DNA from: Shigella phage ESh12
Sequence record: ON528724
Direction: 5' to 3' (one strand)
Length of the DNA stretch: 39,704 bases
The position numbers and the translations under genes are program-made. Shown here piece by piece: positions 4,846 to 34,961 of the stretch (positions are counted from its first letter, which is position 1; each line of letters starts with the position of its first letter). A model generated the notes under the pieces. That model ran no database searches, was not told the origin of the DNA, and saw only the letters and a list, made by a program, of their open reading frames with translations.

Positions 4846-4937
4846 CCATCGCTGTGCTGGTAGGTATGCTGGCGCGAGGTCTCTGGATGTTCTCTCTCAT
4901 AGTCCGAGACGTGAAGCGAGACTCCGAGATTAAGTGA
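4824..4937 (+). CDS. 6.3: gp6.3-like small protein (below ORF-track size cutoff)
   Basis: 37-aa [40 protein letters not shown] overlapping end of gene 6; T7 has a 37-aa gp6.3 here. Confidence 0.5.
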
Positions 4938-4995
4938 TAAACTCAAGGCTCTCTACAATTAACCCTCACTAAAGGGAAGAGGGAGCCTTTATGAT
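4938..4995 (+). promoter_or_regulatory. RNase III-type hairpin (R6.5 position) enclosing a promoter
   Basis: AAACTCAAGGCTCTC ... GAGGGAGCCTTTATGATTATT arms flank the promoter at 4957..4979. Confidence 0.5.
4957..4979 (+). promoter_or_regulatory. T3-type phage RNAP promoter (phi6.5 position)
   Basis: AATTAACCCTCACTAAAGGGAAG. Confidence 0.85.
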
Positions 4996-5030
4996 TATTA
5001 CTTTAAGACTTAACCTTAAGAGGTGAAATT

Positions 5031-22497: not shown

Positions 22498-22764
22498 ATG
22501 AGCGACAAGACTTTAATCAAGCTGCTGGAGATGCTAGACACGGAGATGGCACAGCGTATGCTTGCTGACCTCCAGAGCGAGGAACGCCGAACGCCGCAGC
22601 TTTACAACGCAATCGGCAAACTGTTAGACCGCCATAAGTTCCAAATCAGTAAGCTGACCCCGGATGAGAACATCCTTGGCGGTCTCGCGGCTGGTCTGGA
22701 AGACTACAACAAAGTGGTCGGCCCTAATGGTCTGACTGATGATGAGACTATCACGCTACAGTAA
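22498..22764 (+). CDS. 18: Terminase small subunit gp18
   Basis: 88 aa, syntenic, similar to T7 gp18. Confidence 0.85.
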   Translation: MSDKTLIKLLEMLDTEMAQRMLADLQSEERRTPQLYNAIGKLLDRHKFQISKLTPDENILGGLAAGLEDYNKVVGPNGLTDDETITLQ

Positions 22765-22767
22765 GTG

Positions 22768-22810
22768 ACATACTCAAGGTTCTCCACGCGGGGAGCCTTT
22801 ATGGATGTTA
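22768..22810 (+). promoter_or_regulatory. RNase III-type hairpin (R18.5 position)
   Basis: ACTCAAGGTTCTCCACGCGGGGAGCCTTTATGGAT. Confidence 0.5.
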
Positions 22811-22853
22811 TTTGGTGCATCTACGTGAAATCTGAAAATTGATGGGAGGTGTT

Positions 22854-25980: not shown

Positions 25981-26052
25981 ACAACCAGACCGATAAGACC
26001 CATTGTTAACCTGTAGTGATGCCTTGTAGTTTCCTATAATATCCAACGTTGT

Positions 26053-26075
26053 CTGTTTACCCTCACTAAAGGGAA
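26053..26075 (+). promoter_or_regulatory. T3-type phage RNAP promoter (phiOL, left-end replication promoter)
   Basis: TGTTTACCCTCACTAAAGGGAAT followed by AT-rich tandem repeat. Confidence 0.65.
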
Positions 26076-26129
26076 TGAGGGATACCTAAAGAGGGAATAA
26101 AAGATTTAATAAAAGATTTAAATTAATGG

Positions 26130-26165
26130 TTGACTTTAAGTTACCTTTAAAGCTATTATTCATCA
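26130..26165 (+). promoter_or_regulatory. Host sigma70 early promoter (A1 position)
   Basis: -35 TTGACT at 26130, -10 TATTAT at 26154. Confidence 0.6.
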
Positions 26166-26258
26166 CGTCAACGGGACAACGGCCTTAAAGCCACTCCCTG
26201 AGATACCGGAGTCAACCGGATAAGTAGACAGCCTGATAAGTCATACGAAAAACAGGCA

Positions 26259-26294
26259 TTGACAACATGAAGTAAACGCAGTAAGATGCACAAC
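26259..26294 (+). promoter_or_regulatory. Host sigma70 early promoter A2
   Basis: TTGACAACATGAAGTAAACGCAGTAAGAT; -35 TTGACA, 17-nt spacer, -10 TAAGAT; near-identical to T7 A2 from memory. Confidence 0.85.
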
Positions 26295-26368
26295 ATAGCG
26301 TCAACCACCAAATCGGTGTCTTCTAGGTGACTTAAGCGCACCACGGCACATAAAGCGAAACAAAATGG

Positions 26369-26404
26369 TTGACAACATGAAGTAAACACGGTACGATGTA
26401 CCAC
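26369..26404 (+). promoter_or_regulatory. Host sigma70 early promoter A3
   Basis: TTGACAACATGAAGTAAACACGGTACGATGTACCACATG identical to T7 A3 from memory. Confidence 0.9.
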
Positions 26405-26599
26405 ATGAAAGACACCGAGTGTCGTAGGTGTAAAAACGCGACATAGTGGATAGATGGCGAAAGCACAAGCGACCACGATAATAAAGAGCTTGTCGCACTT
26501 ATAACGCAAGTGATGGCTAACACTGAAATAGCCTCGGCTCGACGAAACTGTAGCCTAAAGTTCTTTAACAATCTGGATAATAGCTCTTGAGTGTACCGA

Positions 26600-26660
26600 T
26601 GTATAAGCGAATAACTCAAGGTCGCACTGAAAGCGTGGCCTTTATGATATTCACTTAACA
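26600..26660 (+). promoter_or_regulatory. RNase III-type hairpin (R0.3 position)
   Basis: TAGCTCTTGAGTG...AACTCAAGGTCGCACTGAAAGCGTGGCCTTTATGATATTCACT. Confidence 0.6.
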
Positions 26661-26684
26661 CGAACTAACATGAGGTAATACCAA

Positions 26685-27143
26685 ATGATTTTCACTAAAG
26701 AGCCTGCTAACGTCTTCTATGTACTGGTGTCAGCTTTCCGTTCTAACCTTGATGATGAGGTGAACATGAGTCGCCACCGCCACATGGTGAGCGAATTACG
26801 TGCCGCACCGGGCATCTACGGCGAACTTGAGTCTACCGATTTGACCGGGTGCTATCGTGAGGCAATCGCAAGCGCACCGACTGAGGAAAAAACGGTTCGT
26901 GTACGCTGCAAGGACAAGGCGCAGGCACTCAATGTTGCACGCTTAGCTTGCAATGAGTATGAGCAAGATTGCGTACTGGTATACAAATCACAGACTCACA
27001 CAGCGGGATTGGTGTACGCTAAAGGTATCGACGGGTATAAGGCTGAACGTCTGCCGGGTAGCTTCCAAGAGGTGCCTAAAGGCGCACCACTGAAAGGGTG
27101 CTTTACGATTGACGAGTTCGGACGCCGCTGGCAAGTGCAGTAA
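26685..27143 (+). CDS. 0.3: gp0.3 S-adenosylmethionine-degrading enzyme (T3 SAMase, anti-restriction)
   Basis: 152 aa, first gene after A1-A3 and R0.3; recognised as the T3 0.3 protein from memory (MIFTKEPA...GRRWQVQ). Confidence 0.85.
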   Translation: MIFTKEPANVFYVLVSAFRSNLDDEVNMSRHRHMVSELRAAPGIYGELESTDLTGCYREAIASAPTEEKTVRVRCKDKAQALNVARLACNEYEQDCVLVYKSQTHTAGLVYAKGIDGYKAERLPGSFQEVPKGAPLKGCFTIDEFGRRWQVQ

Positions 27144-27145
27144 GT

Positions 27146-27195
27146 GTTAAACTCAAGGTCGCTCCATGCGAGTGGCCTTTATGATTATCACTTAA
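27146..27195 (+). promoter_or_regulatory. RNase III-type hairpin
   Basis: AAACTCAAGGTCGCTCCATGCGAGTGGCCTTTATGATTATCA. Confidence 0.55.
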
Positions 27196-27214
27196 CTATC
27201 AAAGGAAGTACACC

Positions 27215-27499
27215 ATGCGCTTAAGTAAAGATACAGCGGTAGCTCTGAGGTCAGCAATTGAATCCAGAGCCGCACACAACGATGGAGGTCTTGCGGATGT
27301 TGCACGGGCTTACAAGGAGAAAGGCCTAACATTCCGTAGATTCATGTGGGACTGTTATCACGCAGTGGGCTTTAAAGAGACCACCAGAATCATATCAGAG
27401 CACAACACGGTGACAGTGATTGGTGGGCATATAACAGACGTCAATGATTCGCACATCGAAACTATGCTCAAGGTTGCACTGAAAGACATGGCTTATTAG
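27215..27499 (+). CDS. Early hypothetical protein
   Basis: 94-aa ORF, ATG after AAAGGAAG; no recognisable motif. Confidence 0.5.
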   Translation: MRLSKDTAVALRSAIESRAAHNDGGLADVARAYKEKGLTFRRFMWDCYHAVGFKETTRIISEHNTVTVIGGHITDVNDSHIETMLKVALKDMAY

Positions 27500-27502
27500 T
27501 GA

Positions 27503-27550
27503 TTAACTACAGGTCGGTAGCTCGTAGCGGCCTGAATGATAATTACTAAA
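27503..27550 (+). promoter_or_regulatory. RNase III-type hairpin variant
   Basis: AACTACAGGTCGGTAGCTCGTAGCGGCCTGAATGATAATTAC. Confidence 0.4.
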
Positions 27551-27570
27551 CAACCTGAGAGGATATAACC

Positions 27571-27726
27571 ATGAAACGATACGCCATCCTTATTCCCGGC
27601 TGGTGCTACTCAATGACATGCTATGGGTACAACGAAAGGGACGCTCGTGCACGCTTTAGAGACCAACAAGGCTTTGGCAAGCGTTTACCTAATGGAACGG
27701 CTGTATGGGAGTTATGTAATGAGTAA
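27571..27726 (+). CDS. Early small hypothetical protein (51 aa)
   Basis: ATG after GAGAGGA; stop overlaps next ORF start; below ORF-track cutoff. Confidence 0.35.
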   Translation: MKRYAILIPGWCYSMTCYGYNERDARARFRDQQGFGKRLPNGTAVWELCNE

Positions 27727-27919
27727 ACTTCTGGCAACATCTAAAATAGAAGGCCAATGCACTGTAACACTGCGTGAGTATTACCACGGGTCAATGGGAA
27801 GCACCTACGTTGTGCGATACGGTAAACAGGTAACACATTGGGTAAACCCGATTTTAGCACAAGAGGATTATCAAGCCTGTGTGATACACCAAGCAACATG
27901 TGCGGGCTGGAATGATTGA
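27719..27919 (+). CDS. Early small hypothetical protein (66 aa)
   Basis: ATG at 27719 after GGGAG; 4 Cys; ORF track shows longer version from an upstream alternative start. Confidence 0.4.
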   Translation: MSKLLATSKIEGQCTVTLREYYHGSMGSTYVVRYGKQVTHWVNPILAQEDYQACVIHQATCAGWND

Positions 27920-27960
27920 TAACGCGATTTGCAATCACTGGGCAACAGACTTCAAGTCTA

Positions 27961-28010
27961 TCAAGTGTTAAACTCAAGGTCGCTCCATACGAGTGGCCTT
28001 TATGATTAAC
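27961..28010 (+). promoter_or_regulatory. RNase III-type hairpin
   Basis: TAAACTCAAGGTCGCTCCATACGAGTGGCCTTTATGATTAAC. Confidence 0.55.
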
Positions 28011-28105
28011 ATTACAGGAGAGCATGATATGTTCGAGAAGGTTGTGAACTGGTCTATCGGGCCGATTATCATCTTAATCATTATGAACAACTTAGGGTAT
28101 TTCTC

Positions 28106-28303
28106 ATGATGGCAGCACTAATCGCACTGGTCTATCTGTGCATCGCAATGTACTTTATGCGAGACTTTAAGCGCGGTCTGGCAATACACAAGGCAACACT
28201 GAGTTACTTTAAGTGGGGATTCATCCCACGGTTTACGGTTCGTGAACGCAACGGACGCTTTAAGGCCAACAAGGTGGGAGTATTCTACATTGCAACCCAT
28301 TAA
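28106..28303 (+). CDS. Early small membrane protein (65 aa)
   Basis: Hydrophobic N-terminus MMAALIALVYLCIAMYFM then basic tail; preceded by a 26-codon hydrophobic mini-ORF at 28029..28109. Confidence 0.35.
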   Translation: MMAALIALVYLCIAMYFMRDFKRGLAIHKATLSYFKWGFIPRFTVRERNGRFKANKVGVFYIATH

Positions 28304-28742
28304 GACCTGCGTAGCGTGTGGTGAGATAAAGCCGCTTGAGTTCTACACAAAGAATGCTGCGTCACCTGATGGACACATCGGCACATGCAAGGCGTGTAAA
28401 GCCAAACAGCAGCGCGAAAGGCGCTTAAAGGCGAAAGCCGCCTCTGTGCCTACCGATAAGGCGCTTAAGGATGCAAAGCGGAGACGCAACAACCACCTGA
28501 AAGTAAACTATGGTATTGATGAACTGACCTACCGTAAAATGTATGAGGAGCAGAACGGAGTGTGCGCCATATGCAAGCACCCGGAGAGTATAGCCGGTAG
28601 GCAGCTCTGTGTTGACCACTCCCACATCACCGGGGACGTTCGGGGTCTTTTATGTTCAAACTGCAACAGGGGAATAGGGCTACTAAAGGATTCACCTGAA
28701 TTGTTACGCAATGCCTTCCACTATTTAACGGGCAAACTTTAA
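28290..28742 (+). CDS. Endonuclease VII-like (His-Me finger / HNH) nuclease
   Basis: CAICKHPE...LCVDHSHITGDVRGLLCSNCNRGIGLL matches the T4 endonuclease VII zinc-binding/catalytic signature from memory; start uncertain (TTG 28290 after GGTGGGAG, or GTG 28242). Confidence 0.7.
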   Translation: MQPIKTCVACGEIKPLEFYTKNAASPDGHIGTCKACKAKQQRERRLKAKAASVPTDKALKDAKRRRNNHLKVNYGIDELTYRKMYEEQNGVCAICKHPESIAGRQLCVDHSHITGDVRGLLCSNCNRGIGLLKDSPELLRNAFHYLTGKL

Positions 28743-28800
28743 GACCAATAAGGTCGGTATCTTCTACAGCACATTAACTACTACCTAAGGACACATTGAA

Positions 28801-29910
28801 ATGACTTTCACCGAAGCACAAGCCGCACTCGAAGCTATCCGCAACCTACCGATTGAGCGCATGAACGAGCGCCAGCCAATGCTGGTGGCTCTTGTGGCTG
28901 CTATCGTGAACTCTGAGACTCAGGAGGGGCAACTGACAGCGGCTAAAGGAAACCGGAGTCTTGAGGACATGGACTACTGGCAGACGCTGGCAGAGCGCAT
29001 GAGGGATGTTGGTTTCATTAAGTTAGGAAATGGTCACTTTAGCGCAGCATATGAGCACGCGTTGTTACCGGGCAAGGTCATCAAGGTAGGCTTTAAGAAA
29101 GAGGACTCAGGCGCAGCCTATGCAGCCTTCTGCCGTATGAACCAAGGCCGGGAAGGTATCCCTACGGTGTACGACATTCAGCGCCACGCTGGTTGTTACA
29201 CGGTGGTTCTTGACTATCTGAACCCGCTTAACGACTGGTGCTACGGTGAGAGTGACAAGGTGCGTCACCACTTCAAAGCCGCACGGGAAATCATTGAGGA
29301 GGATTGCTTCGATACCGCCGAAGAGTACCCAATAAGTGACGGGTTCATTGAGACCTGCAAGGATATCCGCAAGTTCTTCTTAGGCATCGCATCGTTCGAT
29401 TGTCACAGCGGTAACATGATGAAAGACCAGATGGGACGCCTGATTATCACAGACCCGGTATCATTCAGCGCAGACGACAAGTTAAAGCCGGGTGAGTTCC
29501 ACTGTGACCCGGATGAACTCATCGCTGAGATTGAGGCGCTGAGAGCGCAGGAAGCGATTGACCGCTGTAAGGCACGCAAGGCACGCCGTGACCCTAAAGG
29601 AGACTTTCAGGTAGCACGAAAGGCCCGTGCCAAATGGCGCAGAAAGGCCTCTAAGCGTGCTAAACGTGACGCTAAGGTACTCGCTAAGATGCGCATGGAT
29701 GCCAACGAGCAACGCAGGGCCGAGCCTAGGGCACGTATGTTGTGGGGCGATAAGCACTGGCGCAACGCTTGGGTGCAGCACATGAATGTTGACTTCGCAC
29801 GGCTCGAACTGTTAGCAGCCGCACAGATGGCACAGATAGACCACAAGGCTATCGTATGGGGCAAGCCGTTACACATAGACGCATACCTTGACAAGAGACT
29901 GCAAGGCTGA
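28801..29910 (+). CDS. 0.7: gp0.7 serine/threonine protein kinase (host shut-off)
   Basis: 369 aa; GNGHFSAAYEH, VIKVGFKKEDSGAAY, HSGNMM, ITDPVSFS and basic C-terminal domain match T7 gp0.7. Confidence 0.9.
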   Translation: MTFTEAQAALEAIRNLPIERMNERQPMLVALVAAIVNSETQEGQLTAAKGNRSLEDMDYWQTLAERMRDVGFIKLGNGHFSAAYEHALLPGKVIKVGFKKEDSGAAYAAFCRMNQGREGIPTVYDIQRHAGCYTVVLDYLNPLNDWCYGESDKVRHHFKAAREIIEEDCFDTAEEYPISDGFIETCKDIRKFFLGIASFDCHSGNMMKDQMGRLIITDPVSFSADDKLKPGEFHCDPDELIAEIEALRAQEAIDRCKARKARRDPKGDFQVARKARAKWRRKASKRAKRDAKVLAKMRMDANEQRRAEPRARMLWGDKHWRNAWVQHMNVDFARLELLAAAQMAQIDHKAIVWGKPLHIDAYLDKRLQG

Positions 29911-29911
29911 T

Positions 29912-29965
29912 AGAGTCTTTTCTTACAGGTCATCACTAGGTGGCCTGAATAGGAACGATTTATTC
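29912..29965 (+). promoter_or_regulatory. RNase III-type hairpin (R1 position)
   Basis: CTTACAGGTCATCACTAGGTGGCCTGAATAGG upstream of gene 1. Confidence 0.45.
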
Positions 29966-29980
29966 ACAATGAGGCAAACA

Positions 29981-32635
29981 ATGAACATCATCGAAAACAT
30001 CGAAAAGAATGACTTCTCCGAAATCGAACTGGCTGCTATCCCGTTCAACACACTGGCAGACCACTACGGTAGCGCATTGGCTCGTGAACAACTGGCTTTA
30101 GAACATGAGTCTTATGAGCTAGGCGAGCGCCGCTTCCTCAAGATGCTTGAGCGTCAAGCGAAAGCTGGTGAGATTGCAGACAACGCAGCCGCTAAGCCAT
30201 TACTCGCTACGCTTCTCCCTAAGTTAACCGCACGCATCGTTGAGTGGCTCGAAGAGTACGCATCGAAGAAAGGCCGCAAGCCTAGCGCATACGCACCGCT
30301 CCAGTTACTCAAGCCGGAGGCCTCCGCGTTTATCACCCTGAAAGTTATCCTTGCATCACTGACCAGCACGAACATGACAACCATTCAGGCCGCTGCTGGT
30401 ATGCTGGGGAAGGCCATTGAGGATGAGGCACGTTTCGGGCGTATCCGTGACCTCGAAGCGAAGCACTTCAAGAAGCACGTTGAGGAACAGCTCAACAAGC
30501 GCCACGGGCAAGTCTACAAGAAGGCCTTTATGCAGGTGGTCGAGGCCGATATGATTGGTCGAGGCCTGCTTGGTGGCGAGGCGTGGTCTAGCTGGGATAA
30601 AGAAACCACGATGCACGTAGGGATTCGCCTGATTGAAATGCTGATTGAATCCACGGGTCTGGTGGAATTACAGCGACACAACGCAGGTAACGCAGGCTCT
30701 GACCATGAGGCACTGCAACTGGCCCAAGAGTACGTCGATGTGTTAGCGAAGCGTGCAGGCGCTCTGGCGGGCATCTCTCCGATGTTCCAGCCGTGTGTCG
30801 TACCGCCTAAACCTTGGGTAGCAATCACCGGAGGCGGCTATTGGGCTAACGGTCGCAGACCTTTGGCACTCGTTCGCACTCACTCTAAGAAGGGACTGAT
30901 GCGCTATGAGGATGTTTACATGCCAGAAGTTTACAAGGCGGTCAACATCGCACAGAACACCGCATGGAAAATCAACAAGAAAGTTCTTGCGGTTGTCAAT
31001 GAAATTGTTAACTGGAAGAATTGCCCGGTAGCAGACATTCCATCACTGGAGCGCCAAGAGTTACCGCCTAAGCCGGACGACATTGACACCAACGAGGCAG
31101 CACTCAAGGAGTGGAAGAAAGCCGCCGCTGGTATCTATCGCTTGGACAAGGCACGAGTGTCTCGCCGTATCAGCTTAGAGTTCATGCTGGAGCAGGCCAA
31201 CAAGTTTGCAAACAAGAAAGCAATCTGGTTCCCTTACAACATGGACTGGCGCGGTCGTGTGTACGCTGTGCCGATGTTCAACCCGCAAGGCAACGACATG
31301 ACGAAAGGTCTGCTGACCCTCGCTAAAGGCAAGCCAATCGGTGAGGAAGGGTTCTACTGGCTGAAAATCCACGGTGCGAACTGTGCGGGTGTCGATAAGG
31401 TGCCTTTCCCTGAGCGCATCGCGTTCATTGAGAAGCACGTAGACGACATTCTGGCTTGCGCCAAAGACCCAATCAATAACACTTGGTGGGCTGAGCAGGA
31501 CTCACCGTTCTGTTTCCTCGCGTTTTGCTTCGAGTATGCAGGCGTTGCGCACCACGGTCTGAGCTACAATTGCTCTCTGCCGCTGGCGTTCGATGGGTCT
31601 TGCTCCGGTATCCAGCACTTCTCCGCGATGCTCCGCGATGAGGTAGGCGGTCGCGCGGTTAACCTACTGCCAAGCGAAACCGTGCAGGACATTTACGGCA
31701 TCGTTGCACAGAAAGTAAACGAGATTCTCAAACAGGATGCAATCAACGGCACACCTAACGAGATGATTACCGTGACCGATAAGGACACCGGGGAAATCTC
31801 TGAGAAGCTCAAGCTGGGAACCTCAACGCTGGCGCAACAGTGGCTGGCGTATGGTGTAACCCGTAGCGTAACTAAACGTTCGGTCATGACGCTGGCTTAC
31901 GGTTCCAAGGAGTTCGGCTTTCGTCAACAGGTACTGGACGACACCATTCAGCCTGCGATCGACAGCGGTAAGGGCTTGATGTTCACCCAACCTAACCAAG
32001 CGGCTGGCTATATGGCTAAGCTGATTTGGGACGCGGTGAGCGTGACCGTAGTCGCAGCGGTTGAGGCGATGAACTGGCTCAAGTCTGCCGCTAAGCTGCT
32101 GGCTGCTGAGGTCAAGGACAAGAAGACCAAGGAGATTCTGCGCCACCGTTGCGCGGTTCACTGGACTACGCCGGACGGCTTCCCGGTCTGGCAGGAATAC
32201 CGCAAGCCACTCCAGAAGCGTCTCGATATGATTTTCTTAGGGCAATTCCGTCTGCAACCGACGATTAATACCCTCAAGGATTCAGGCATTGACGCACACA
32301 AGCAGGAATCTGGCATCGCTCCTAACTTTGTTCACTCACAGGATGGTAGCCACCTGCGCATGACAGTCGTTTATGCTCACGAGAAGTATGGTATTGAGTC
32401 CTTTGCGCTCATCCATGACAGCTTTGGGACTATTCCGGCAGACGCTGGTAAGCTCTTTAAGGCTGTGCGTGAAACGATGGTTCTCACCTACGAGAACAAC
32501 GATGTGCTGGCAGACTTCTATGACCAGTTTGCAGACCAGCTACACGAGACCCAACTTGACAAGATGCCTCCTCTTCCGAAGAAAGGGAACCTGAACCTGC
32601 AAGACATTCTCAAGTCTGACTTTGCCTTTGCATAA
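29981..32635 (+). CDS. 1: Single-subunit DNA-dependent RNA polymerase gp1, T3 specificity
   Basis: 884 aa from MNIIENIEKNDFSEIELAAIPF; near-identical to T3 RNAP from memory; consistent with T3-type promoters throughout. Confidence 0.97.
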   Translation: MNIIENIEKNDFSEIELAAIPFNTLADHYGSALAREQLALEHESYELGERRFLKMLERQAKAGEIADNAAAKPLLATLLPKLTARIVEWLEEYASKKGRKPSAYAPLQLLKPEASAFITLKVILASLTSTNMTTIQAAAGMLGKAIEDEARFGRIRDLEAKHFKKHVEEQLNKRHGQVYKKAFMQVVEADMIGRGLLGGEAWSSWDKETTMHVGIRLIEMLIESTGLVELQRHNAGNAGSDHEALQLAQEYVDVLAKRAGALAGISPMFQPCVVPPKPWVAITGGGYWANGRRPLALVRTHSKKGLMRYEDVYMPEVYKAVNIAQNTAWKINKKVLAVVNEIVNWKNCPVADIPSLERQELPPKPDDIDTNEAALKEWKKAAAGIYRLDKARVSRRISLEFMLEQANKFANKKAIWFPYNMDWRGRVYAVPMFNPQGNDMTKGLLTLAKGKPIGEEGFYWLKIHGANCAGVDKVPFPERIAFIEKHVDDILACAKDPINNTWWAEQDSPFCFLAFCFEYAGVAHHGLSYNCSLPLAFDGSCSGIQHFSAMLRDEVGGRAVNLLPSETVQDIYGIVAQKVNEILKQDAINGTPNEMITVTDKDTGEISEKLKLGTSTLAQQWLAYGVTRSVTKRSVMTLAYGSKEFGFRQQVLDDTIQPAIDSGKGLMFTQPNQAAGYMAKLIWDAVSVTVVAAVEAMNWLKSAAKLLAAEVKDKKTKEILRHRCAVHWTTPDGFPVWQEYRKPLQKRLDMIFLGQFRLQPTINTLKDSGIDAHKQESGIAPNFVHSQDGSHLRMTVVYAHEKYGIESFALIHDSFGTIPADAGKLFKAVRETMVLTYENNDVLADFYDQFADQLHETQLDKMPPLPKKGNLNLQDILKSDFAFA

Positions 32636-32646
32636 CAAGCACTTAG

Positions 32647-32669
32647 CATTAACCCTCACTAACGGGAGA
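32647..32669 (+). promoter_or_regulatory. T3-type phage RNAP promoter (phi1.05 position)
   Basis: CATTAACCCTCACTAACGGGAGA. Confidence 0.8.
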
Positions 32670-32721
32670 CTACTTAAGGTCTCCCACTTTAAGACACTTT
32701 AGGTACTAAGAGATTAAATTT

Positions 32722-32994
32722 ATGATTAACATTAAGACTTTCTTTAAGAACATCTTTAAGTTAAACCGCTTGACTTCCGTTAAGTTCTACGCTTGGATGC
32801 CAGGTAGTGATGACCTCCGCAAGACTGAATTTAAGTTAGGCTTAGGGCCGTGCGGTAAGGTGGTCACGAAGTTGGAATGTTACTCAACGGCCTCCGGGAT
32901 GGTCATCTTCCAGACCACTGAGGACAACGAAACGAAATCCTTCTACTACCCGAAAGGTTCAACGTGTGGTCGTATCGAACGGACATACAGTTAA
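32722..32994 (+). CDS. 1.05: gp1.05-like small protein
   Basis: 90-aa ORF, AT-rich, weak RBS, lies in the presumed primary origin region. Confidence 0.45.
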   Translation: MINIKTFFKNIFKLNRLTSVKFYAWMPGSDDLRKTEFKLGLGPCGKVVTKLECYSTASGMVIFQTTEDNETKSFYYPKGSTCGRIERTYS

Positions 32995-33011
32995 CCCTCA
33001 CTAACGGGAGA
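32989..33011 (+). promoter_or_regulatory. T3-type phage RNAP promoter (phi1.1 position)
   Basis: AGTTAACCCTCACTAACGGGAGA overlapping stop of 1.05. Confidence 0.8.
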
Positions 33012-33060
33012 GTTAAACTTAAGGTCATCAACAACGGTGGCCTTTGTGATTAACTTTCAA
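33012..33060 (+). promoter_or_regulatory. RNase III-type hairpin (R1.1 position)
   Basis: TAAACTTAAGGTCATCAACAACGGTGGCCTTTGTGATTAAC. Confidence 0.5.
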
Positions 33061-33086
33061 TACACATCAACATGAGGTAAGATACT

Positions 33087-33227
33087 ATGCGTACCAACTT
33101 TGAGAAATTTACCAAGCGCGATTCAGTGGTCAACGAGCATGGCGAACAGTGGCAAGAGCGCCGTGACCGCATGAAGAAACGCCACAAGCAACAGCGCGGT
33201 AACTCACAGAAACGGGAGTGGAACTAA
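33087..33227 (+). CDS. 1.1: gp1.1 small basic protein
   Basis: 46 aa MRTNFEKFTKR... resembles T7 gp1.1; below ORF-track cutoff. Confidence 0.6.
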   Translation: MRTNFEKFTKRDSVVNEHGEQWQERRDRMKKRHKQQRGNSQKREWN

Positions 33228-33232
33228 TGATG

Positions 33233-33505
33233 ATGGGACGTATCTATAGCGGCAACCTGAACGATTACAAAGATGCGGTAGCGCGTCTACAGGAAGACCA
33301 TGACGTGACCGTGAAGATGGAGTCATTCAGCTATGAAAACCCAGCGAAGATGTGCAGGTCATCAGGTGAGGTTCTCCGCGTGTTCACACGCTCAGGGCAT
33401 CCGGTGGCATCCAGAACCTTCGAGCATAGTGACAGCGATGTGCAAATCAACGCGCAGACTGCATGGCTCCGCAAGGTTCACAGCGATTTGAAACACTGGA
33501 AGTAA
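33233..33505 (+). CDS. 1.2: gp1.2 (host dGTPase inhibitor family)
   Basis: 90 aa from MGRIYSGNL, ends HWK; similar to T7 gp1.2; ATG choice among three adjacent Met is uncertain. Confidence 0.75.
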   Translation: MGRIYSGNLNDYKDAVARLQEDHDVTVKMESFSYENPAKMCRSSGEVLRVFTRSGHPVASRTFEHSDSDVQINAQTAWLRKVHSDLKHWK

Positions 33506-33525
33506 TAACCCTCACTAACAGGAGA
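33503..33525 (+). promoter_or_regulatory. T3-type phage RNAP promoter (phi1.3 position)
   Basis: TAATAACCCTCACTAACAGGAGA. Confidence 0.75.
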
Positions 33526-33531
33526 AACGAA

Positions 33532-33948
33532 ATGAGAAACATCGAACGGTTCAACGCAAAGACTGAACCTTGCGGTGACTGTCTACGTTGGACTGGTCGA
33601 ATCCAGCCTAACGGTTACGGACAGTTTCGCCTCGAAGGTAAAACACAATACGCACATCGAGCAGCTTACAAGCTGTTTATCGGTGAATTGGACAATAAAG
33701 ATACAGTCCTCCACTCGTGCGATAACAGGTGGTGTGTGAACCCTGAGCATTTGACCAAGGGAACGCAGGCCGATAACCTGAAAGACATGGCGATAAAGGG
33801 TAGGCACCACGCCATTAAGATTCCGAACGATGCCATTGAGGGCATCCGTAAAGACCCTCGCTCTGCCACTGTGATAGCGGCTGAGTGGGGCGTCCATCCA
33901 ACAACCATCCATAAGATTAAGCGAAACATCAACAGGAGATTCGTATGA
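33532..33948 (+). CDS. HNH endonuclease (free-standing, homing-endonuclease-like)
   Basis: 138 aa; HSCDNRWCVNPEHLTKGTQADN HNH core, Cys-containing N-terminal region, C-terminal helix-turn-helix-like tail; stop overlaps ligase ATG (ATGA). Confidence 0.8.
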   Translation: MRNIERFNAKTEPCGDCLRWTGRIQPNGYGQFRLEGKTQYAHRAAYKLFIGELDNKDTVLHSCDNRWCVNPEHLTKGTQADNLKDMAIKGRHHAIKIPNDAIEGIRKDPRSATVIAAEWGVHPTTIHKIKRNINRRFV

Positions 33949-34961
33949 ACATTTTCAAGACCGCGCCATATAAAGCCGTATCCTTTGTAGAGTCTGCCGT
34001 GAAGAAAGCACTTGACAATGCTGGTTATTTGATTTGCGATTGCAAATATGATGGTGTTCGTGGTAACATCGTGGTTGACAACGTGGCTGAGGCTGCATGG
34101 CTGTCCCGTGTAGGTAAGCTGATTCCGGCGCTGGAGCACCTGAACGGCTTCGATAAGCGCTGGCAGCAACTACTGAACGATGACCGCTGCATCTTCCCGG
34201 ACGGCTTCATGCTGGATGGTGAACTGATGGTCAAAGGCGTAGACTTCAACACAGGGTCTGGCCTGCTGCGTACCAAGTGGCTCAAGAAGAACAACTTCAT
34301 GTTTGACCGTGGTGGTGTTGAGCCGCTGAAAGGTTCCAAAGTAGCCTTTGAGTTAGACCCCAAGCTACTCAGCGTGCGCCTGTATGCTGTCATGCCGATT
34401 CACATTGCGGAGTCTGGCGAGGACTACGATGTACAGAACCTGCTGATGCCGTATCATGTGGAAGCCATGCGCTCTCTTCTGGTTGAATACTTCCCGGAAA
34501 TCGAGTGGCTTATCGCTGAGACCTACGAGGTCTACGATATGGATTCACTGACTGAACTGTACGAAGAGAAGCGTGCCGAAGGTCACGAGGGTCTCATTGT
34601 GAAAGACCCACAAGGCATCTACAAGCGAGGCAAGAAGTCTGGCTGGTGGAAGCTCAAGCCTGAGTGTGAAGCTGACGGTATCATTCAGGGTGTCAATTGG
34701 GGAACCGAAGGGTTAGCCAACGAGGGTAAAGTGATAGGCTTTAGTGTGCTTCTTGAGACTGGTCGTTTAGTAGACGCCAACAACATCTCTCGCGCACTGA
34801 TGGACGAGTTCACAGCCAACGTTAAAGCCCACGGTGAAGACTTCTACAACGGGTGGGCCTGTCAGGTCAACTATATGGAAGAGACCCCGGACGGCTCCCT
34901 GCGTCACCCTAGCTTCGAGAAGTTCCGAGGCACTGAGGACAACCCTCAAGAGAAAATGTAA
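33945..34961 (+). CDS. 1.3: ATP-dependent DNA ligase gp1.3
   Basis: 338 aa; active-site KYDGVRG, strong similarity to T7 ligase. Confidence 0.95.
   Translation: MNIFKTAPYKAVSFVESAVKKALDNAGYLICDCKYDGVRGNIVVDNVAEAAWLSRVGKLIPALEHLNGFDKRWQQLLNDDRCIFPDGFMLDGELMVKGVDFNTGSGLLRTKWLKKNNFMFDRGGVEPLKGSKVAFELDPKLLSVRLYAVMPIHIAESGEDYDVQNLLMPYHVEAMRSLLVEYFPEIEWLIAETYEVYDMDSLTELYEEKRAEGHEGLIVKDPQGIYKRGKKSGWWKLKPECEADGIIQGVNWGTEGLANEGKVIGFSVLLETGRLVDANNISRALMDEFTANVKAHGEDFYNGWACQVNYMEETPDGSLRHPSFEKFRGTEDNPQEKM

Follow-up and report, generated by a model that had tools for sequence, protein, structure and literature searches.

Stacked small-gene cassettes and RNase III-type hairpins in the variable early region of the T3-like Shigella phage ESh12

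The early region between gene 0.3, which encodes an S-adenosylmethionine (SAM) lyase, and gene 0.7, which encodes a protein kinase, was analysed in the DNA of Shigella phage ESh12 (sequence record ON528724; 39,704 nucleotides, hereafter the window), and six small open reading frames (ORFs A to F, all on the + strand) together with three RNase III-type hairpins were found to occupy ∼92% of this interval (Table 1). With a probability of roughly 80%, we read the interval as the variable part of a T3-like early operon, in which small genes separated by RNase III sites are stacked as cassettes and ORF F is a homing-type endonuclease gene. In the mechanism that we propose, which borrows from what is known of T7 and T3, host RNA polymerase would make one long RNA from the equivalents of promoters A1–A3, and host RNase III would cut it at the hairpins into the messages 0.3, A, B-C and D-E-F-0.7, each with a terminal protective stem, on which the small ORFs would be translated via their own Shine-Dalgarno sites or through ATGA coupling. 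The cassettes themselves would be gained, lost or swapped by recombination at the ∼59-nt hairpin repeats and at gene borders.

Cassette structure of the interval

The end of gene 0.3 (27143) and the start of gene 0.7 (28801) are separated by exactly 1657 bp in the window. A preliminary description, made from the sequence alone, had given ∼1.66 kb and called the region expanded, and this is borne out by the 436 bp found there in T3 and by a median of 572 bp in 84 related loci carrying both anchors, a non-random sample in which the window interval is the longest and the next one measures 1572 bp.

By comparing gene orders over the stretch from the promoters to gene 0.7, the same cassettes were recognized in different combinations, namely SAM lyase-A-B-C-D-E-F in the ESh12 window, SAM lyase-A-D-E-0.65 in 2050H2, SAM lyase-B-C-D-E-F in KpnP_VR4605, SAM lyase-C-D-E-F in Phage 31, ocr-0.4-A-B-C-D-E-0.65 in phiYe-F10, and SAM lyase-E-0.65 in T3. 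The window ORFs recur at 78–100% amino-acid identity in sequenced Teetrevirus-type phages, and more distant copies occur in other genera. Every breakpoint versus the close relatives was located at a hairpin or a gene border; 2050H2 is without exactly 27517–27963 (B-C), with its flanking alignments overlapping by 19 nt inside the arm of hairpin 2/3, and the junction with KpnP_VR4605 lies at 27529, inside hairpin 2. By these comparisons the region is a mosaic of known cassettes, and it owes its length to their stacking and not to new sequence.

An assembly artefact, in which the 59-nt repeats joined the cassettes of two co-occurring phages in silico, would also produce an unusually long interval. 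It would fit that no INPHARED record covers at least 80% of the 1657 bp in one place, that three near-identical repeats could mislead an assembler, and that the patch 27529–29100 resembles KpnP_VR4605 while the remainder resembles 2050H2. Yet each junction is present in an independent genome with alignments overlapping by hundreds of bases, continuous alignments extend over 26562–28303 in F5M1C, 27143–28303 in phiYe-F10 and 27529–33526 in KpnP_VR4605, such mosaicism is the norm among these genomes, and the repeats are shorter than typical sequencing reads. Because overlapping relatives tile every junction, we consider a chimera very improbable.

Genomic setting

The window is a T3-like phage genome in permuted order. 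The phage is a Teetrevirus with a 2050H2-type backbone; in the backbone comparison bases 1–25000 of the window showed 97.8% identity to Serratia phage 2050H2 (Teetrevirus). In the 2050H2 record itself, an apparently intact gene 0.65 was found unannotated (our locus L091, 1881–2051; TTG start, 56 amino acids (aa), LLRTNSKHVKIALYAMAYGASKRK...). Upstream of the interval, three strong sigma-70 promoters lie at 26130, 26259 and 26369, with −35 boxes TTGACT/TTGACA and 10/12 matches each, and their spacings of 129 and 110 nt equal those of A1–A3 in the T3 record. The region is the class I (early) region, which host RNA polymerase would transcribe, as the preliminary description had placed it. The gene 0.3 product is 94.7% identical to T3 gp0.3, and the phage RNA polymerase gene follows downstream of gene 0.7. 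The Pfam copy used gave no family for gene 0.7 of the window and is apparently older than the precomputed annotations, in which the metagenomic T7-like contigs L100, L102 and L103 bear the labels PF26807 (Phage_T7_GP04) and PF27024 (Phage_T7_kinase).

Table 1. Coordinates of the 0.3–0.7 interval and its flanking features in the ESh12 window
Feature	Position	Strand	Remarks
Three sigma-70 early promoters, A1–A3 equivalents	26130..26397	+	would drive the operon holding the 0.3–0.7 interval
RNase III site R0.3	26602..26660	+	covariance model 72.9 bits; aligned positions identical to annotated T3 R0.3
Gene 0.3, SAM lyase, left anchor	26685..27143	+	Pfam PF23780 S-AdoMet_lyase, 1.1e-42
RNase III-type hairpin 1 (R0.5 type)	27139..27197	+	−20.7 kcal/mol, z −4.0; 73.7 bits
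ORF A, 94 aa	27215..27499	+	phrog_9817; helical protein, invariant GLTxxRFMWD motif
RNase III-type hairpin 2 (diverged copy)	27494..27552	+	−20.9 kcal/mol, z −4.2; 67.6 bits
ORF B, 51 aa	27571..27726	+	phrog_13225
ORF C, 66 aa, 'gene 0.45' of phiYeO3-12-type phages	27719..27919	+	phrog_6500; ATGA overlap with B
RNase III-type hairpin 3 (orthologue of T3 R0.5)	27960..28018	+	69.8 bits
ORF D, 26-aa hydrophobic peptide (MFEKVV...)	28029..28109	+	phrog_17444; AGGAG 8 nt upstream; stop overlaps E start (ATGA)
ORF E, 65 aa, T3 gene 0.6 family	28106..28303	+	phrog_2385 (8.2e-30); ATGA overlap with D
ORF F, 150 aa, zinc-finger + endonuclease VII/HNH nuclease	28290..28742	+	TTG start; slot of T3 gene 0.65
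58-bp spacer carried with F	28743..28800	+	contains gene 0.7 ribosome-binding site
Gene 0.7, protein kinase, right anchor	28801..29910	+	phrog_2828 serine-threonine kinase, 6.7e-176
RNase III site R1	29910..29965	+	62.5 bits; near-identical to annotated T3 R1

RNase III-type hairpins

Hairpins 1–3 and the R0.3 site constitute one family of 59-nt direct repeats. Hairpins 1–3 align to R0.3, R0.5 and R1, which are annotated as stem_loop features in T3 (NC_003298), with hairpin 3 in register with T3 R0.5 and differing from it in the upper stem by compensatory changes, and they fold with minimum free energies of −19.8 to −20.9 kcal/mol (z −3.6 to −4.2 versus shuffles). The RNAalifold consensus comprises 20 pairs, which form a lower and an upper stem with an internal loop between them. 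As Rfam is without a model (a search of 26000–30500 at E-values up to 1 returned no family), a covariance model was built from the hairpins themselves, which scores the early hairpins at E-values of ∼1e-12 and detected nine sites on the + strand of the window, versus only four weak matches on the − strand (E-values 0.016–0.56) that are reverse complements of + strand sites.

Applied to 89 related loci, the model yielded 221 matches, all 221 on the transcribed + strand. Among 110 distinct hairpin sequences, 94% of the cells were paired as against 27–50% in slid controls, compensatory changes on both sides were seen at 14 of the 20 pairs, and the covariation score reached 0.489 as against at most 0.10 in slid controls, a value that none of 500 shuffles attained, in an alignment fitted to the model, which favours structure. 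The repeat family, the folding scores, the alignment to T3 sites and the covariation are all in line with the three RNase III-type hairpins of the preliminary description, and by analogy with T7 and T3, where the cleavage is known, we regard the three as T7/T3-type RNase III sites that would be cut.

A promoter scan at the hairpins returned one weak site, in the 3′ arm of hairpin 3 (28006–28033, 9/12 matches), and none at hairpins 1 and 2, and no terminator-type T-run follows any of the hairpins. A further candidate hairpin before gene 0.7 (28735–28800) was rejected on its folding z of 0.15. Outside the early operon, the four remaining + strand sites of the model, at 1037–1092, 4929–5007, 22760–22817 and 33005–33062, are presumably equivalents of later T7-group sites, e.g. 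R1.1, R3.8, R4.7, R6.5, R13 or R18.5.

Coding status of the ORFs

Pooled across homologues, the ratios of non-synonymous to synonymous polymorphism (pN/pS) were 0.18 (A), 0.087 (B), 0.145 (C), 0.25 (E) and 0.03 (F), versus 0.14 and 0.19 for the control genes 0.3 and 0.7, and the median pairwise ratio of non-synonymous to synonymous substitutions (dN/dS) of E was 0.11. The variable columns of B fell 4, 2 and 21 times on codon positions 1, 2 and 3, i.e. 21 of 27 on third positions. Translation signals accompany every ORF, either a Shine-Dalgarno site or, at B/C and D/E, an ATGA overlap of stop and start, and A, B and E are kept at 40–60% identity in other genera with conserved lengths. By these measures A, B, C, E and F are real genes, under purifying selection of a level like that of genes 0.3 and 0.7; D is a candidate gene, and its coding is unproven. 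Coordinates, lengths and peptide sequences of the ORFs given in the preliminary description (94, 51, 66, 26 and 65 codons plus an endonuclease VII-like gene) proved correct.

If most of the short ORFs were not genes, the interval could be spacer RNA for RNase III processing and for the timing of gene 1 entry and expression. The shortness of the ORFs and the lack of a coding signal in D would suit such a spacer, and phiYeO3-12 mutants deleted for 0.3–0.7 genes reportedly kept their plating efficiency, so that these genes are said to be dispensable in the laboratory. It is hard to reconcile with selection as strong as for the two anchor genes, with the excess of third-position changes in B, with the translation signals of each ORF, with the persistence of A, B and E across genera, and with confident AlphaFold2 (AF2) folds for A and C, and we give it very little credence.

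Each of A to E belongs to one existing function-unknown PHROG family (9817, 13225, 6500, 17444 and 2385, respectively). Pfam, NCBIfam and PADLOC scans of A–E returned only sub-threshold noise (DUF7316 at 0.041 for B, Root_cap at 0.11 for C), and none of the five matched the curated defence or anti-defence models of these collections, no dedicated anti-defence library having been searched. A sequence search of the PDB gave no match for A, for C or for the profile of E, and in the literature no study was found that addresses the function of T3-type 0.45, 0.6 or 0.65, nor any for the PHROG identifiers. The word 'unassigned' in the preliminary description is thus apt for the function of A–E, for which these searches, the PDB fold comparison and the literature gave none; as a statement of novelty it goes too far, all five being in existing PHROG families and C and E carrying the standard names 0.45 and T3 0.6.

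ORFs A, B and C

The AF2 model of A has a predicted local distance difference test (pLDDT) score of 89, and a fold search of the PDB found no analogue for it. With an isoelectric point (pI) of 7.9, A is not acidic and for this reason is unlikely to be a DNA mimic. In the presence counts, which refer to 85 loci carrying gene 0.7, A occurs in four; it was found in 61 phage records, all Autographiviridae, and is rare among 1.84e9 proteins (36 clusters, 24 representatives). As to its surroundings, A comes first in Kayfunavirus Vec13, as gene 1 with ocr downstream, lies just upstream of the SAM lyase gene in Przondovirus Oda and among the early genes in Ermolevavirus PGT2, and, where T7-like metagenomic contigs are without ocr and SAM lyase, immediately precedes a 0.4-like gene. 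Throughout, A either adjoins ocr or SAM lyase or takes their place at the head of the early genes. On these grounds A is tentatively proposed as a candidate anti-defence or host-takeover protein that might act by protein binding.

ORF B, present in 4/85 loci, reaches more widely, with 88 phage records that extend to myoviruses of the Vequintavirinae and to a Pseudomonas phage, and is possibly a mobile accessory gene common to unrelated phages. In Salmonella phage SSBI34 (Vequintavirinae), the B homologue (L099, 2001–2153) sits within a run of small hypothetical ORFs, and a second 50-aa ORF of similar annotation lies 2 kb downstream of it (L099, 4043–4138), a pair that suggests paralogues of a B small-gene family.

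ORF C matches phrog_6500 at 4.7e-45 and, at 90.9% identity, positions 1847–2044 of AP10, inside a coding sequence annotated '0.45'; a 66-aa gp0.45 with the same ribosome-binding site context has also been listed (PMC4925675). C is accordingly a member of the gene 0.45 family of phiYeO3-12 and phiSG-JL2, and was found in 18/85 loci. Its confidently predicted fold is AP2/integrase-arm-like, a weak functional lead after which C might be a small nucleic-acid binder of that type. C as a zinc-binding protein was considered and rejected, its cysteines not being conserved.

ORFs D and E

ORF D was found in 3/85 loci. Its maximum 17-residue Kyte-Doolittle score is 1.64, and that of the N-terminus of E is 2.36, in agreement with the two hydrophobic peptides of the preliminary description. 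D DNA is identical in five relatives, and the sole variant carries two non-synonymous and no synonymous changes; the genomes with 100% identical D DNA (L001, L003, L090 and L091 among them) match the region overall at 88.5–97.8%. This identity could be explained by a recent spread of the D-E cassette or by constraint at the RNA level. A tblastn search of D against phages gave no match, the query being short and of low complexity.

Longer versions of D were also considered. The 38-aa version from GTG 27993 was rejected, its start sitting in the upper stem of hairpin 3, and the 35–38-codon versions of the annotators likewise begin inside this hairpin. ATG 28002, in frame with D, is part of the TTTATGAT motif common to three of the four early hairpins, hairpin 2 carrying TGAATGAT in its place, and only ATG 28029 has an AGGAG of its own.

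The slot of D, between the R0.5-type hairpin and gene 0.6 (28019–28109 in the window), is occupied across Teetreviruses by at least three unrelated small hydrophobic peptides. In place of D, E-4 and Kpn-11mx carry a 52-aa MVIFIAVALFAVAGW... protein, and F5M1C has a 40-aa ...LIILCIAIPAAINFVY... protein; the alternative peptides were located at L086 2081–2239, L087 2074–2196 and L093 1620–1778.

ORF E shares 93.8% identity over 65 aa with T3 gp0.6 (T3 1430–1627) and occupies the same position upstream of 0.65/0.7, so that E is a T3 gene 0.6 family member. It is the widespread one, found in most of the non-T7 Studiervirinae loci sampled (66/85) and in 117 clusters, all of ∼65 aa and on ∼40-kb contigs of several genera. 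When 20 family members were scanned with Pfam, only noise came back. An N-terminal transmembrane helix is predicted, followed by RDFKR and the invariant basic tail PRFTVRxxNGRFKANKVGxFYxATH (pI 10.5 for the protein), and 19 of the 26 columns invariant across genera fall into the 24-residue C-terminal tail (41–64). A transmembrane domain has been described for gene 0.6 of phage AP5 (PMC4283147). By the positive-inside rule, the tail of E should face the cytoplasm, where it would bind a conserved target; E, perhaps together with D, is tentatively pictured as an inner-membrane-anchored early protein whose basic cytoplasmic tail might bind a conserved host target.

Comparison with T7 genes 0.4, 0.5 and 0.6A

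The small ORFs might be the T3-type counterparts of T7 0.4, 0.5 and 0.6, in which case their functions would be known, T7 gp0.4 being an FtsZ inhibitor and T7 gp0.6 (0.6A) an MreB binder. Both sets share the operon position and consist of very small early proteins, and just as 0.5 precedes 0.6A in T7, small hydrophobic peptides precede the T3-type gene 0.6, with the same order of an RNase III hairpin followed by a hydrophobic peptide whose stop is coupled via ATGA to a small basic protein. The T3 record also names E 'gene 0.6', and a weak C-terminal match was seen between E and T7 gp0.6A (45% over 20 aa, E-value 0.011 in a four-sequence database).

Beyond this hint, BLASTP of A–F versus T7 0.3, 0.4, 0.5 and 0.6A returned nothing: no match to gp0.4 was better than an E-value of 1.3, and that of D to gp0.5 stood at 2.9. 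The T7 proteins belong to PHROGs 7202, 16572 and 8393, all different from the families of A–E (17444 versus 16572 for D and gp0.5, which leaves only a positional and physicochemical analogy). E as a gp0.6A homologue was rejected, since the family-versus-family comparison by hhalign gave a probability of 0.2–0.8%. Some genomes carry true 0.4 and 0.6A homologues in addition to A, C or E, and genuine 0.4 homologues are separate genes beside A in phiYe-F10, AP10 and metagenomic contigs. Such an equivalence with the T7 genes is therefore very unlikely; as no homology is detectable, by sequence or by profile, the T7 functions are not transferable to the window ORFs, and the name '0.6' is positional only. 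The preliminary description would have been overturned by ordinary 0.4/0.5/0.6-type homologues or by ORFs that are not translated; no ORF proved homologous to T7 0.4, 0.5 or 0.6A, and five of the six carry coding-type selection.

ORF F, a probable homing-type endonuclease

ORF F scored 84.5 bits with Pfam PF02945 Endonuclease_7 (cut-off 23.6; E-value 4.7e-24; profile positions 3–81 of 82) and matched Hpy99I and T4 endonuclease VII in the PDB (3fc3 and 1e7d). Its C91/C94, D108-H109, H111 and C124/C127-N128 align with C23/C26, D40-H41, H43 and C58/C61-N62 of T4 endonuclease VII, with independent support from the PDB matches. The zinc ligands CxxC...CxxC and the catalytic Asp-His...Asn are intact. 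F thus shares with the nucleases of this fold the beta-beta-alpha-metal core, and differs from T4 endonuclease VII by an extra N-terminal zinc finger and by the missing C-terminal dimerisation region of the T4 enzyme.

The gene is present in 5/85 loci and absent from 2050H2, and the wider nuclease family occurs in 1961 phage records. F and T3 0.65 share a TTG start that overlaps the end of 0.6, and F replaces 0.65 exactly between identical flanks, similarity to F-less genomes resuming at 28788. Positions 28900–29299, in the 5′ part of gene 0.7, are 82–91% identical to 2050H2, and from 29300 on identity to 2050H2 is again 97–99%. Positions 28700–29099 are 98–99% identical to the F-carrying KpnP_VR4605, with a drop to 85% in 29100–29299. 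The first 300–400 bp of gene 0.7 seem to travel with F, a pattern that fits co-conversion. Like homing endonucleases, F shows a sporadic distribution with presence/absence polymorphism at one locus. For F, we prefer a selfish homing-type endonuclease to a host-takeover gene; it would be a free-standing HNH/endonuclease VII-type enzyme that replaced 0.65 and brought flanking 0.7 sequence with it.

A working DNA-metabolism enzyme, which might resolve Holliday junctions as T4 endonuclease VII does or be an HNH protein associated with packaging, would not be selfish, and the annotators' name endonuclease VII, the aligned catalytic core and the strong purifying selection on F would agree with such a role. 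However, F is missing from most of the related loci and from the closest backbone relative, T7-group phages are known to resolve junctions by the gene 3 endonuclease I, F lies in the early operon with its additional CxxC...CxxC finger as an exact replacement of another gene, and the genome carries another, unrelated HNH gene as an insertion at a different place, which is typical of homing elements. We hold a metabolic role for F to be quite improbable and keep to the homing-type endonuclease.

The second HNH gene is a free-standing ORF of 161 aa with the motif HSCDNRWCVNPEHL at 33463–33948 (+), placed between gene 1.2 and the ligase gene 1.3 (33945–34961). Because neither 2050H2 nor KpnP_VR4605 aligns over 33527–33943, it is an insertion relative to both.

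Discussion

In comparison with the T3/phiYeO3-12 early region, the window has the same promoters, SAM lyase, kinase and hairpins and the same gp0.6 and 0.45 families. It differs from T3 in length, in two extra hairpins, in the extra genes A, B and D, and in the HNH gene F in place of 0.65. A second comparison is offered by the PeSL cassettes of T4-type phages, in which repeated regulatory stem-loops, each joining an early promoter to a stem-loop terminator, flank small function-unknown ORFs in a hyperplastic region (PMC2839356, PMC4122927). As in those, insertion, deletion and replacement junctions between close relatives lie within the repeats; unlike them, the window repeats are RNase III processing hairpins without a convincing promoter, belong to another phage family, and have statistically modest support as preferred crossover points. 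It behaves like a PeSL array without belonging to that group.

Phage 'accessory regions' that cluster counter-defence genes have been described by Silas et al. (bioRxiv 10.1101/2023.04.06.535777), and the window resembles them in its hypervariable small-gene block beside an anti-restriction gene (SAM lyase or Ocr), whereas a peptide search of the supplementary files of that study turned up none of A–E. The suggestion of the preliminary description that host-takeover and anti-defence genes sit here holds insofar as the region is still a reasonable place to seek new proteins of either kind, and is less apt for F.

Several observations weigh against the cassette reading and its parts. For the hairpins as crossover points, 14 of 51 distinct endpoint positions of high-scoring segment pairs (HSPs) of at least 150 bp lay at hairpins, versus 13.5% expected (p 0.007), yet the raw endpoints amounted to 27/184 against the same expectation (p 0.36), so that the enrichment is weak; a first enrichment test was discarded as inflated by short hairpin-to-hairpin HSPs, its raw count being non-significant after the 150-bp filter. 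The flank pattern around F is equally given by ordinary patch recombination. That A adjoins anti-restriction genes could just reflect a short operon in which everything is adjacent, and D, with no informative substitutions, may be a leader sequence for E only.

Going further, A might be a third, structurally new counter-defence occupant of the anti-restriction slot of the first early gene, beside Ocr and SAM lyase and with a fold not in the PDB, and, separately, the membrane-anchored E might target a conserved component of the host envelope or division machinery that is not targeted by known phage proteins; taken jointly, these two proposals are rather unlikely.

What is new in the region is the combination of its cassettes, all of them already sequenced, in a well-understood locus type; it is not a discovery in itself, and the current understanding of T7-group biology is unchanged by it. 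What it provides is a ranked list of real, uncharacterised early proteins for anti-defence and host-takeover screens, namely A with its orphan fold, E as the common, membrane-anchored protein with an invariant tail, C with its AP2-like fold, and B, also found in Vequintavirinae. Moreover, the B-C cassette and the swap of 0.65 for F are all that sets 2050H2 apart in this region (97.8% backbone identity over the 25 kb compared), and 2050H2 thereby forms with the window a near-isogenic natural comparison for the roles of B-C and of 0.65/F. In one genome, ESh12 shows how T3-like phages put together an early 'toolbox' of interchangeable cassettes with RNase III hairpins between them.

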